A stretch of DNA of 64,000 nucleotides from Acutalibacteraceae bacterium (GTDB taxonomy: Bacteria > Bacillota > Clostridia > Oscillospirales > Acutalibacteraceae): contig JAZNPT010000054.1 of the NCBI GenBank assembly GCA_045589815.1, forward strand, positions 10,723 through 74,722, given 5' to 3'. The translations under genes were made by a program, and so were the position numbers. The notes beneath the pieces were generated by a model, which saw nothing but the letters and a program-made list of their open reading frames with translations, was not told the origin of the DNA and did no database searches. Every line of letters starts with the position of its first letter. The stretch's first letter is position 1. Positions 11,821 through 16,469 of this stretch are shown piece after piece.

Positions 11821-12324
11821 TCATATATCAATAATTTTTGGTGTTATATTCAGCGCAGGGAGCATTTTTTCAGTTAAATCGCTTGTTTTGATTTTTAAGG
11901 TTGCAGTATTGTCACTCGGATGACAGCACAGAAACTCGTTGTCCAATATCTCGCTGTCAATCGCTAAAAAAACACTTTTTTCTTTGTCAAAAACAAGGCT
12001 TGTAACGCTAAGAGAACCGGGCGAGGTGTTAAGGATATTTTCCATAGCCTCAGTGCCTGCAAAAGAAAGCCTTGATGTTCCGAGTTTTTTTGAAACGTCC
12101 CCGGTAACAAATTTTTTGTTTCCCTTAATCATCAACAGATATCTTACGCTTCCCGAGGTTGTTTGCAAAAACAGATTCTTGCAGATTTCTCCGCCGATAA
12201 GATTCTCTATTTTTTGACATTCTTCAATTGTGAAAGCAGCAGTATGTGAGAAAATCTCAAATTTAATGCCGATATTGTTAAGAAATTCGCAAACAGTGGT
12301 TGCTTTTTTGCTTAAATTGTTCAT
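11821..12324 (-). CDS. YbaK/ProX (PrdX-like) aminoacyl-tRNA editing protein
   Basis: CKNLFL, RLSFA, PGSLS and CCHPSDNT motifs; start moved to ATG 12324. Confidence 0.88.
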   Translation of the reverse strand: MNNLSKKATTVCEFLNNIGIKFEIFSHTAAFTIEECQKIENLIGGEICKNLFLQTTSGSVRYLLMIKGNKKFVTGDVSKKLGTSRLSFAGTEAMENILNTSPGSLSVTSLVFDKEKSVFLAIDSEILDNEFLCCHPSDNTATLKIKTSDLTEKMLPALNITPKIIDI

Positions 12325-12325
12325 A

Positions 12326-13180
12326 TCAATTATAAAATGCGGATTCATAGCTTGCGGTATCAATTTTAATGGATTTCCATGGTCCGCTGCTGCAATCCTC
12401 ATGAGTCAGAATTCCGTCCTCAAAGATGTGAATGTTGGAAAACTGCGATTTACCTTTTGAAAGCACCCATTGCCTACCGATTGATTCCTCGGGAATCGGG
12501 AATATGCTTTCTTCGATTGAAAATGCGCCGTTTCTCAGTTCTCCGCATGCAAAATAAACTATTTTACCATCGCTGTCAAACTCAATATAACAGCGGGTTG
12601 TGTTGCTTTGAATGATATAGGCGCCGTTTTCCGCTTTTAAAAATTCAAGGAATTCTTTAATGTGTTCGCCTTCGCCATCCTCGGTTTTGAAAACATAGCG
12701 AAAGCTGTCAGCCTTTTTATTGTATTCAGCAGAATACGCTTCAGTCAGCTCTTCTGAAACAAACTTAAGGGAAAAGCTCGTTTCACCGTCGGATTCAAAA
12801 ACAATATCTGCTCCGTTGCTCATAAGCTTATAGAAGTTTTTAGCTTCTTCATCGGTCATATCCGAACGAAAGCCCTCTGTGATTTCAAACGAAGAAACAA
12901 CAAACGGTTCAAAAGCTGTGTGAATATAATCGTTTTCAAGAAAATATTCATCGGGGTTTTGAACTCTGATTGCTTTGTTATGCCCGCTTTCGGGCACGCT
13001 GACCTTTGCTTTCATGGCTGAAATTACGCTTGAAAATCTTTCAAGGCTGCCTGCAAAGGTTTTTTCTGTGTTGGTTATGTTAAGCATATCTGCGGTTATT
13101 ATTTTTCTGCTGTCGTCATTGCTTGAGCAGGAGCACAGCAAAAAAACAAGAACTGCAATCAGACATAAGCATTTTTTCAT
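12326..13180 (-). CDS. Hypothetical lipoprotein (284 aa)
   Basis: MKK start with lipobox LCSC; fills the gap between nrdR and proX; no family recognised. Confidence 0.7.
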   Translation of the reverse strand: MKKCLCLIAVLVFLLCSCSSNDDSRKIITADMLNITNTEKTFAGSLERFSSVISAMKAKVSVPESGHNKAIRVQNPDEYFLENDYIHTAFEPFVVSSFEITEGFRSDMTDEEAKNFYKLMSNGADIVFESDGETSFSLKFVSEELTEAYSAEYNKKADSFRYVFKTEDGEGEHIKEFLEFLKAENGAYIIQSNTTRCYIEFDSDGKIVYFACGELRNGAFSIEESIFPIPEESIGRQWVLSKGKSQFSNIHIFEDGILTHEDCSSGPWKSIKIDTASYESAFYN

Positions 13181-13184
13181 CGTT

Positions 13185-13640
13185 TTATTTTTCCTGGAGC
13201 AGCTTTGCAAGTTCGTCCATAAAGGTGTTGATATCCTTGAACTGTCTGTAAACTGAAGCAAAGCGAACATAAGCAACCTCATCAAGATCCCTGAGCTTAT
13301 CCATTGCAAGTTCGCCGATATGAACGGAGGTTACTTCTCGGTCAAGTGAGTTTTGAAGAGTTGCTTCTATTTCGTTGACGGCGGTTTCAAGCTTTTCAAG
13401 AGAAACCGGTCTCTTTTCACAAGCCCTGAGCATGCCGTTAAAGAGCTTGTTGCGGTCAAAAACTTCTCTTGACTTGTCTTTTTTAACAACGATTACCGGA
13501 ACACTTTCAATAACCTCATAAGTGGTGAAGCGCTTCTGGCAGCTTATGCATTCTCTGCGGCGGCGGATGCGCTCGCCCTCATCAGTTGGTCTTGAATCGA
13601 TAACCTTGCTTTCTTCACAGCCGCAAAACGGACATTTCAT
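13185..13640 (-). CDS. nrdR: Transcriptional repressor NrdR
   Basis: MKCPFCG...[17 protein letters not shown] zinc ribbon, ATP-cone, [14 protein letters not shown]. Confidence 0.97.
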
Positions 13641-13660
13641 AGCTAAAACACTCCTTATGT

Positions 13661-14398
13661 TTATTGTTTTTTGATTCCTGTTTGTTTGATTTTTTTGCCG
13701 CAAAGCTCAATGCTTTTTCTGGCAAGCGTAACGAGCGAATCCACAATGGTTTCGTCGGCGATGCTGTAGTCACGGTAGATTATTGAAAGCTCGGTGCAGC
13801 CGAGCACAACGCAGTCGCACCCTCTTCTTTTAAGATTGTTTATTATTCGCCAAAAGCTTTCAATATCAACGCTTTTACCTGCTTTAACCTGGTTATAAAT
13901 TATTTCCATGAGGATTTCGGTGTCCTCATCATCGGGAACGGCATAGTCAAGGCCGTGCTTTTGAAGCATGGTTTGGTATGCACCTGAAACAAGTGTTCCC
14001 TTTGTGGCAAGTATGCCAACCTTTTTTGCATTGGGAACGGTGTTCTTTATGTAAAGAACCGTTTCTTCGATTATGTTGATTATGTGAGTATCGACCGCTT
14101 TTTGGATTTCATCATAGAAAAAATGAGCAGTGTTACAGGGGATAACAATGTAGTCCGCACCGGCCTTCTGCAGGGTTTTTGCATCCTCAATCATCTGCGG
14201 CAGAGGGTTCGGCTCGCTTGGGTCAAGTATGTAATTGGTGCGGTCATGTATTGCGGCATGGTTGAGAATAATCATTGAAACATGCTGCTGGTCGGTTTCG
14301 GCGTCGGTGAGCCTTATAACAAGCTCGGCAAAATATATGGTTGCAAGAGGACCGACTCCTCCAAGCACGCCGAGCTTTAACTCTTTGTTTTCGCTCAT
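13661..14398 (-). CDS. Aspartate racemase (Asp/Glu racemase family, RacD-like)
   Basis: [15 protein letters not shown] and LGCTEL two-cysteine racemase motifs. Confidence 0.9.
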
Positions 14399-14405
14399 TT
14401 AATCA

Positions 14406-15617
14406 CTATCCGTAAATTTTGTATTTTCTGATTTGATTATAGAAAACGGCGTTGGTATAGAAAATTCTTTTCGGGTTTTTATCTGCCTTGTATTTTATCG
14501 GGAAGGTCCAGTTGCCTTCTTTCATTAGTTCGAGGGCTCTGTTTTTCAATTCTTCGTCGTGAACATAGTTCTTGATAACATATTTCGGAACGAGAGAGAA
14601 GAGATGTTCCTTATTCGCAACGGTATATTCAAGGTCTTTTTCATAAATTAGGTCATCAACAATCCATTTAACGGTGTTGAAGCCGCTGGCGGTAACATAA
14701 AAATTGCTTCTGCCGAGGCGAACATTAATTTCAAAGAATTTGAATTTGCCGTCTCTTGTATCATATTTTATGTCAAAATTTGCAAAACCGGTGTATCCGA
14801 TATGTTCAAGAAATTTTGTTGCGGCGGCAACGATTTGGTCATTAACTTCGTTAATGATGACAACGGGGTTTCCGATTGCCGAGGGGGTGTGATCCTCCAG
14901 CAAAACGTGGCCGAGTGAGGCGAATTTAACCTTTGAATTTCTGTCACAGTAGCAGGTGAGAACTCTCATGTAAGTGTCATCACCGGGAATGCAGTCCTGA
15001 ATCAGGAATTTGTAGTTATAGTCTGTTTTTTCAAGCTTGGCAAGCATATCGTCAAGCTCTTGCCTTGTTTTGAATCTGAAAACCTTGCGCTTGCCGTCAA
15101 ATTTTGCATAATGATACATTGCGCTGTTGGCGGGCTTTGCAATAATCGGATATTCAAAATCGAAGTCCATCGCGTTTTCTTCGCCGCAGTTATAAACGTA
15201 AGTTCTCGGGTAATCAATGCCGAGTTCTTCGCATATTTCATAAAACTTGTCTTTAAGAACAATTTTGTTAAGAAGCTCCTCGTCGATATAAGGAATAACA
15301 TAGTATTCGCTGAGAACGGGTTTGTTTTCAATAAGGATTCTGACATACCAGTCTCCGCAGCCCATAACAATCAGCTTCTTTTTGCCCTTGAACTCTTTGC
15401 CGACTTCAATAAGGGTTTGAACAAGTGTATCCTTATTTTCAAGGCCGGGGAATACGCGGTTTTCAATGATGTCGCTGTTGGCGATATATTCGCATTTTTT
15501 CATGCTGAGAACAAGGGATTTTATTTTATATTCTTCATGAAAGCTTCTTGCAAGGCTGTACGCAGTAAAATCCGCACCCAGAATAACAGGCAAAAACTCT
15601 TTTTCCTCAAACTCCAT
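14406..15617 (-). CDS. ATP-grasp carboxylate-amine ligase, D-aspartate ligase (Asl/YxbA-like)
   Basis: PVILGAD...YSLARSFHEEY, KPANS, Q.CIPGDD and FFEINVRLGRSNFY motifs; adjacent Asp racemase. Confidence 0.85.
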   Translation of the reverse strand: MEFEEKEFLPVILGADFTAYSLARSFHEEYKIKSLVLSMKKCEYIANSDIIENRVFPGLENKDTLVQTLIEVGKEFKGKKKLIVMGCGDWYVRILIENKPVLSEYYVIPYIDEELLNKIVLKDKFYEICEELGIDYPRTYVYNCGEENAMDFDFEYPIIAKPANSAMYHYAKFDGKRKVFRFKTRQELDDMLAKLEKTDYNYKFLIQDCIPGDDTYMRVLTCYCDRNSKVKFASLGHVLLEDHTPSAIGNPVVIINEVNDQIVAAATKFLEHIGYTGFANFDIKYDTRDGKFKFFEINVRLGRSNFYVTASGFNTVKWIVDDLIYEKDLEYTVANKEHLFSLVPKYVIKNYVHDEELKNRALELMKEGNWTFPIKYKADKNPKRIFYTNAVFYNQIRKYKIYG

Positions 15618-15648
15618 TTTTTACAACTCCATATACAAACTTATAATC

Positions 15649-15677
15649 ATTATATTACATTTAAAGCCGAATTGCAA
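15649..15677 (-). promoter_or_regulatory. sigmaA promoter of the D-Asp ligase-racemase-nrdR operon
   Basis: TTGCAA-17 bp-TATAAT on the minus strand. Confidence 0.7.
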
Positions 15678-15695: not shown

Positions 15696-16469
15696 TTATA
15701 AATTTTCAATATACTTAAGAGCTTCTGCCAAGTCTTTGCTGCTCTCAAAATTGCTGCGATAAAGTTCGATTATATAATCGCCTTTGTAGTTTGCCGAGCT
15801 CATAACGGAAAACAGCTTTTTGAAATCGAAATTTCCTTTGGCAGGCGGCAGACAGTCGTTGCAGGAATTGTGGTCGCTCAAATGAATGTGAACTATGCTT
15901 TCTTTGAATTCTTCCGCAAAGGCAATGGGTGAATAACCGGCCCTGAATGCCTGCTTAACATCAAATATCAGCTTGAACTCACTGCCGAGAGCAGCTCTCA
16001 TTTTTCTTAAAAAATCGGGGCTTTCGCTGAAGTGACGGTTAACGTTTTCCTGCCCAACGGTAACCCCGAATTCCTTGCCTGCTTGCGAAAGCTTCATGAA
16101 ACGCTCAAAATATTCGTTATCCGTAATTTTACCCGGAAGCAAAGAACCGTGTATAACGGAGAATTCGGCTCCGACGGCGCTTGTTACCTCAAAGCTGCGT
16201 TTGTAAAAATCCAGCATATCGTCAAAACGCCTTTTGTATTCGCTGAAAAGCATGTAAGTTTCGGCAAATGATGAAAAAGGATGAACAGAAACTATTTTCA
16301 TTCCGTATTCATCAGATATTCTGTTGAGAATTTTTGCGAATTCAAGGGTTGTTTCACTCGGCGAATTCAAAAAAACCTCGCAGGTTTTAACGCCGAGCTT
16401 TGCAAGCTCTTCAAGCGATTTTTCGGTTTCTTGCGGGTAAAGGCACGATGTTGAAATTCCGAAAGCCAT
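15696..16469 (-). CDS. Sugar phosphate isomerase/epimerase (AP endonuclease 2 TIM barrel)
   Basis: QENV, IFDVKQA, HIHLSD and DYIIELY metal-site motifs. Confidence 0.85.
   Translation of the reverse strand: MAFGISTSCLYPQETEKSLEELAKLGVKTCEVFLNSPSETTLEFAKILNRISDEYGMKIVSVHPFSSFAETYMLFSEYKRRFDDMLDFYKRSFEVTSAVGAEFSVIHGSLLPGKITDNEYFERFMKLSQAGKEFGVTVGQENVNRHFSESPDFLRKMRAALGSEFKLIFDVKQAFRAGYSPIAFAEEFKESIVHIHLSDHNSCNDCLPPAKGNFDFKKLFSVMSSANYKGDYIIELYRSNFESSKDLAEALKYIENL

Follow-up and report, generated by a model that had tools for sequence, protein, structure and literature searches.

A putative D-aspartate branch module of the RacD/Asl type in an uncultured Acutalibacteraceae genome with a single mDAP-type MurE

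The closest described systems to the gene pair analyzed here are RacD-AslA of Lactococcus lactis and Rac-Aslfm of Enterococcus faecium, each acting with the amidotransferase AsnH, in which an ATP-grasp ligase adjoins an aspartate racemase that is independent of pyridoxal phosphate (PLP); the racD-aslA operon and asnH have been described as the D-aspartate (D-Asp)/D-isoasparagine (D-isoAsn) cross-bridge pathway of lactic acid bacteria (PMC4155827). We find a pair of the same make-up in a stretch of 64,000 nucleotides (the window) from contig C54 (JAZNPT010000054.1, positions 10,723 to 74,722) of a 2.6-Mb metagenome-assembled genome (MAG) of an Acutalibacteraceae bacterium that is 92% complete. 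The likeness to the described systems extends to close relatives, which carry an AsnH-like amidotransferase in the cluster. The window pair differs from them in its order, ligase then racemase, and in having nrdR appended to the operon, while its genome differs from the hosts of those systems in that it carries an mDAP-type MurE only (mDAP, meso-diaminopimelate), two FemX-like transferases and no AsnH-like gene that we could find.

The wall that such a module would build in this genome also has a counterpart, namely the A4-gamma peptidoglycan of Dermabacteraceae such as Brachybacterium, which combines an mDAP stem with a D-Asp/D-Glu interpeptide bridge (PMC3035206, PMC6090031). A4-gamma is known only as a wall chemistry in Actinobacteria. 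Here it is the predicted chemotype, and we found no record of it for Clostridia in the literature. To our knowledge the genes behind A4-gamma walls have not been assigned.

Our reading of the locus, to which we give a probability of roughly 0.6 as a whole, is that the pair forms a peptidoglycan D-Asp branch module with diaminopimelate (DAP) as acceptor, an A4-gamma-like wall and a branch that is left un-amidated. In this scheme the racemase would convert L-Asp to D-Asp, and the ATP-grasp ligase would activate the beta-carboxyl group of D-Asp as an acyl phosphate and join it to the free side-chain amino group at the third residue of the UDP-N-acetylmuramic acid (UDP-MurNAc)-peptide precursor. 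The alpha-amino group of the D-Asp would then serve as the acceptor in transpeptidation, and the branch may be lengthened, or matched by a second one, through the action of the two FemX-like transferases.

The ligase gene (14406..15617, minus strand, 403 aa) gave only weak, generic ATP-grasp matches in Pfam, NCBIfam and PDB sequence searches, with no curated Asl model found in Pfam or NCBIfam. Its homologs are numerous (2964 matches in 90% clusters, and 389 50%-clusters below 1e-30). Ligases of 70-97% identity occur in Acutalibacteraceae MAGs, three of which (70-76%) bear the automatic name 'D-aspartate ligase' from the Joint Genome Institute; a search of the ESM Atlas returned generic 'carboxylate--amine ligase' clusters only, and the NCBI names encountered among family members are generic ('carboxylate--amine ligase', 'ATP-grasp domain-containing protein', 'hypothetical protein'). 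Comparators came from a tblastn search of PLSDB, where three lactobacilli are represented by 'plasmid' records of chromosome size. Asl-like genes from Latilactobacillus curvatus (35.5% identity to the window ligase, in the order aspS-racemase-ligase), Lactobacillus crispatus (38.9%, asnB-ligase) and Limosilactobacillus fermentum (34.4%) match over 94-99% of the ligase length, and their neighbourhoods agree with the racD-aslA operon and asnH pathway of lactic acid bacteria (PMC4155827).

A quick maximum-likelihood tree (IQ-TREE, 99 sequences, with support from the Shimodaira-Hasegawa-like approximate likelihood ratio test only) places these lactobacillus genes inside the family, while a Priestia ATP-grasp protein used as outgroup sits on a branch of 9.9 substitutions. 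The window ligase falls in a well-supported 38-row clade of Acutalibacteraceae-type MAGs and the lactobacilli in another subclade. The AlphaFold2 model (mean predicted local distance difference test score 94.7) has the ATP-grasp fold, with ATP-grasp ligases as all of its top PDB matches, and the ATP/Mg residues K161, D282 and E296-x-N298-x-R300 are invariant in 34 homologs. The nearest solved relatives, the L-amino-acid ligases BL00235 (3vot), RizA (4wd3) and BacD/YwfE (3vmm, 3wo1) and the enzyme PylC (4ffl), share the fold and the nucleotide/Mg site of the model (Foldseek E 1e-13 to 1e-16), but at only 12-17% identity and a template modelling score near 0.55 they belong to different subfamilies, and no Asl-family structure was among the PDB matches. 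PylC offers a parallel in its reaction, since it acylates a lysine epsilon-amine with a D-amino acid. On homology and tree position we assign the window ligase to the Asl (D-aspartate ligase) family, with the lactobacillus comparators taken as orthologs by synteny.

The racemase gene (13661..14398, minus strand, 245 aa) scores 142 bits with PF01177 (Asp_Glu_race) and 220 bits with TIGR00035, and it matches the aspartate racemase of Pyrococcus horikoshii (1jfl) at E=1e-48. Its PCNTAH and GCTE motifs align to Cys82 and Cys194 of 1jfl, so that both catalytic cysteines are present, the position of Cys82 being confirmed by the 2dx7 mutant. By these signatures it belongs to the PLP-independent aspartate racemases of the RacD type, with Asp, as against cysteate or Glu, the probable substrate. 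A sequence-only reading of the window had proposed both identities; the identities hold on homology, tree, TIGR00035 and the catalytic Cys, and the ligase groups with the lactobacillus asl-like genes, far from the Priestia outgroup.

The association of the two genes is recurrent. Among 80 ligase loci from a genome scan (run with a profile built from a 10-sequence ligase alignment, a 34-sequence one being too diverse), a racemase homolog lies in the flank in 59, and in 57 it follows the ligase directly on the same strand. Such loci span Acutalibacteraceae, Oscillospiraceae, Lachnospiraceae (Bariatricus), Bacilli (Viridibacillus), Eggerthellaceae (Adlercreutzia) and Actinomycetota (Phycicoccus, Cellulomonas, Isoptericola, Xylanimonas), and with its presence in the first three of these families the pair is not unusual for Clostridia. 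A4-type walls, too, are listed for the genera Eubacterium and Anaerococcus (table in PMC11382707). Two natural ligase-racemase fusions, P0122 and P0123 (649 and 677 aa), share 56% and 53% identity with the window ligase, and other family members are fused to FemAB domains. An AsnB-like (AsnH-like amidotransferase) gene flanks 32 of the 80 loci, and 8 of the 13 loci of the family sample. In Candidatus (Ca.) Fimenecus, whose ligase is 74% identical, the order is ligase, racemase, AsnB-like gene (614 aa), glmU and pth, which by gene content amounts to the full Asl/RacD/AsnH triad beside a peptidoglycan-precursor gene, within the ligase clade of the window.

Because of the family homology, the recurring ligase-racemase order, the fusions and the linkage to AsnH-like genes and glmU, we consider it quite probable that the pair is a RacD/Asl-type module for D-Asp branching of peptidoglycan, taking the branch function by itself. 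As such it is an ordinary, widespread member of the known RacD/Asl peptidoglycan-branching system. Four other fusions, P0133, P0139, P0159 and P0250, carry an N-terminal DegT/DnrJ-type aminotransferase, P0133 having a C-terminal FemAB domain as well, and hint that some relatives may acylate amino sugars, not the stem peptide.

What sets the ligase clade of the window apart is that it is without a Lys-type MurE. The window genome has a single MurE (530 bits, with the next-best Mur ligase at 73 bits), whose TSDNPR and GKGQE motifs are the mDAP signature; divergent second MurE paralogs in other genomes score 307-460 bits and are thus detectable. A single DNPR MurE was found in all seven sampled genomes of the clade (the window genome and six more, most of them 93-99% complete). 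A single R-type MurE, again with DNPR, is also present in carriers from the clade at 61% identity (where one has DNSR), in an Oscillospiraceae MAG, in Eggerthellaceae, and in Phycicoccus and an Ornithinibacter MAG (Intrasporangiaceae). The other ligase clade, comprising lactobacilli, Viridibacillus, Bhargavaea, Bariatricus, Catenibacillus and five other Acutalibacteraceae genera, often comes with a second MurE that lacks the arginine (DNPD, EDPG, EDPQ, EDHG), and the MurE of the Isoptericola carriers has DDPH. In two genomes the second paralog (EDPQ or EDHG) directly adjoins the ligase (G040, C111:8692-11308, and G053, C3:131328-134039; loci L161, L164, L128 and L124), which is the classical Lys/Orn arrangement and points to a unit of two genes by which the third residue and the branch on it would be altered together.

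Because the only MurE of the window genome is of the mDAP type (DNPR), our candidate for the D-Asp acceptor is DAP, through its epsilon-amino group, rather than Lys, and we would put even odds on this part when it is judged from the genes on its own. An A4-gamma-like wall in this organism would follow from it. The sequence-only reading had left a choice between an atypical Lys-D-Asp wall and a new D-Asp ligation target; the MurE check gave the opposite of the first, and the second is the better of the two, with the DAP epsilon-amino group as the likely target, although it must be set against the wall type of Adlercreutzia rubneri discussed below. In two ligase-negative Acutalibacteraceae genomes, G014 (C1:2341880-2344391) and G024 (C26:3131-5809) (loci L114 and L115), a second MurE that lacks the DAP arginine (DNPD, DDPD) lies directly upstream of a FemAB gene, and this looks like a portable cassette for an alternative diamino acid plus a Fem branch.

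The amidation step seems to be missing from the genus. TIGR01536 detects no AsnH-like gene in the window genome (best match 26 bits, against a cut-off of 267), and tblastn with the AsnB-like protein of Ca. Fimenecus was empty in the window genome and in seven same-genus loci, so the D-Asp would probably stay un-amidated in this genus. The window genome does carry two stand-alone FemX-like genes of the FemAB family (353 and 343 aa) in housekeeping contexts, at C36:74324-75385 (L129:7324-8385, minus strand) and C10:87465-88497 (L130:7466-8497, plus strand). At least one FemAB gene is present in each of four same-genus genomes, and none in Ca. Fimenecus.

Several points weigh against this interpretation. 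Adlercreutzia rubneri ResAG-91 has a ligase (45%), a racemase, an AsnB-like gene and a DNPR MurE, and its wall was typed as A1-gamma, with direct mDAP cross-linking, by the German culture collection DSMZ; that of A. equolifaciens is given as 'A1-gamma or A4-gamma' (PMC8549271). Either the branch was missed or is not expressed in A. rubneri, or the module has another target in DAP-type organisms. The link to the Asl family is made through lactobacillus orthologs defined by synteny, and not directly through Aslfm or AslA, the characterised enzymes. Nor is the DNPR rule free of exceptions, as the MurE of Cellulomonas, an L-Orn genus, keeps ENPR. At 92% completeness the MAG may be lacking an asnB or a second MurE that the organism has, and the ligase clade of the window has no cultured member and hence no wall chemistry. 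In the literature, the wall types of Ruminococcaceae and Oscillospiraceae are mostly blank in current tables (PMC11382707), and we found nothing usable on those of Acutalibacteraceae, Ruminococcaceae, Phycicoccus or Catenibacillus.

In the alternative that fares best, the ligase would attach D-Asp to a target outside the peptidoglycan stem peptide, for instance an amino sugar, a small peptide or some secondary polymer of the wall. The A1-gamma wall of A. rubneri despite its gene set, the DegT-type sugar aminotransferase fusions and the generic NCBI names encountered among family members all speak for it. The fusions are, however, only 34-41% identical, and the linkage of relatives to AsnH-like genes, glmU, a second MurE and FemAB domains points back to the stem peptide. 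The named cultured carriers are also mostly from genera with A4-type walls that have D-Asp or D-Glu bridges, namely Isoptericola, Xylanimonas, Cellulomonas, Viridibacillus and the lactobacilli. For the lactobacilli, D-Asp bridges are covered by a general statement (PMC4155827). Taken together, a target of this kind seems unlikely to us, at perhaps one chance among several.

We find it less plausible still that the wall is a classical Lys-D-Asp (A4-alpha) one as in E. faecium and L. lactis, with either the DNPR MurE adding L-Lys or a second, Lys-type MurE hidden in the 8% of the genome that is unassembled. In its favour, Lys-D-Asp organisms are where the ligase family is best known, the Isoptericola carriers have a DDPH MurE, and prediction from motifs is imperfect, as ENPR in Cellulomonas illustrates. 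The presence of one MurE only, with exact DNPR and GKGQE, and the same pattern throughout the sampled clade tell against this, as does the fact that paralogs of the kind seen elsewhere would show well above the 73 bits of the next-best match, and we regard a Lys-D-Asp wall as improbable.

The weakest alternative concerns the racemase, which also passes NF052483, the NCBIfam model of the cysteate racemase CuyB (217 bits against a cut-off of 190). The same model gives 202-244 bits on all eight ligase-linked racemases tested (L027, L062, L068, L071, L079, L090, L092 and L133, including those of Isoptericola, Cellulomonas and Viridibacillus), so the CuyB label is uninformative here, and we rejected it as the model does not separate CuyB from RacD-type enzymes. 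That the racemase is CuyB and the pair belongs to sulfonate metabolism is very improbable, as the passing score is offset by the fit of the model to every ligase-linked racemase tested, by its 185 bits, just short of the cut-off, on the L. curvatus racD-like gene, by the slightly higher score of TIGR00035 in the window (220 vs. 217 bits) and by the lack of sulfonate genes adjoining the pair. RacD-type racemases are probably prone to being named 'cysteate racemase' by automated annotation.

The distribution of the ligase and of FemAB was surveyed with one genome per genus over 81 Acutalibacteraceae genera. The ligase is present in 14 and FemAB in 18, and the sole overlap is the window genome; the other 80 genera have FemAB in 17, an Asl-type ligase in 13 and both in none, with about 50 having neither. 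If the two were independent, an overlap of zero in 80 genera would have a chance of roughly 4% (with no correction for phylogeny), and it is weak evidence that Asl-type ligases and FemAB are alternative ways of branching the stem peptide. The genera with neither system presumably use direct cross-links, which suggests at least three wall solutions within one family.

At its deeper levels the ligase tree disagrees with taxonomy, and there are two ligase clades inside Acutalibacteraceae. We rejected a recent horizontal transfer of the locus, its base composition being native (the GC of the pair, 0.40-0.44, and its GC at third codon positions match the genome, 0.427, and the neighbouring open reading frames, ORFs). 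The nearest public relatives, with ligases of 95-97% identity, are Acutalibacteraceae or Clostridia MAGs, three of them from deer gut, followed by Ca. Fimenecus at 74-75%. Two loci on contigs labelled Bacteroidaceae/Sangeribacter (L050 and L053) have ligases that group with Oscillospiraceae sequences, reflecting either mis-binning or cross-phylum transfer.

A broader proposal, which we hold tentatively and rate somewhat below even odds, is that mDAP, and not Lys, is acylated by a whole clade of Asl-type ligases in uncultured Acutalibacteraceae of the gut, and probably by those of Oscillospiraceae, Eggerthellaceae and Intrasporangiaceae as well. A4-gamma-type walls would thereby gain their first gene assignment, and Clostridia their first wall of this type, while in the genus of the window tRNA-dependent FemX-like enzymes would further elaborate the un-amidated D-Asp. 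Muropeptides from the gut act on the host as signals for NOD1 and NOD2. If the proposal is true, D-Asp-substituted DAP would alter the fragments of the iE-DAP (gamma-D-glutamyl-mDAP) type shed by gut anaerobes, as well as sensitivity to lysozyme, endopeptidases and cationic peptides, and a DAP-accepting Asl would be the gene for a long-known chemotype. The Acutalibacteraceae may also serve well as a set of markers when peptidoglycan types are to be predicted from metagenomes.

The pair, its promoter and nrdR all lie on the minus strand of the window. A sigma-70-type promoter, TTGCAA-17 nt-TATAAT (15649..15677, a 10/12 match by sequence reading and consensus scan), is located in the 78-nt intergenic region between the ligase and its upstream neighbour, a xylose-isomerase-like TIM-barrel gene (16469..15696, minus strand), together with a GGAG 10 nt 5' of the ligase start, an ATG at 15617. 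Promoter-like matches are frequent in the AT-rich DNA of the window (20 seen vs. 10.7 expected in the consensus scan), but the element is credible despite this because its -35 (CTTGCA), -10 (TGTAATATAAT) and spacing, along with the GGAG, are invariant across eight same-genus sequences in which the other intergenic DNA has diverged. The promoter pointed out earlier, reading from 15677 to 15649, is thereby supported.

The racemase ORF begins 8 nt past the ligase stop, and the ATG of nrdR, the ribonucleotide reductase repressor gene (13185..13641), lies 19 nt past the racemase with AAGGAG in the gap; 13703, the start in the ORF list, lies too far upstream, and we take the start as 13641. The nrdR product scores 219 bits with TIGR00244 (cut-off 125) and has the Zn-ribbon PF22811 and ATP-cone PF03477. 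Because the minus strand shows no terminator-like site from ligase through racemase to nrdR, save a weak one within the ligase ORF, co-transcription of nrdR with the pair is plausible. Of the operon proposed by the sequence-only reading, the linkage to nrdR is thus seen, as a genus-specific feature, and a common transcript remains at the level of plausibility. The join of nrdR to the pair occurs only in seven same-genus loci (L017-L023), as does the flanking by the TIM-barrel gene and two genes further downstream, an ORF of about 284 aa and a YbaK-like gene. With synteny restricted to the genus, we rejected a functional tie between nrdR and the pair; the linkage has no evident functional meaning, and nrdR would just share a transcript in this genus. 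The ORF of about 284 aa (12326-13180, minus strand) has no Pfam or NCBIfam match, and it is 60-68% conserved in every same-genus locus that reaches far enough, where it is followed, as in the window, by the gene with a YbaK/aminoacyl-tRNA-editing domain (11821-12402).

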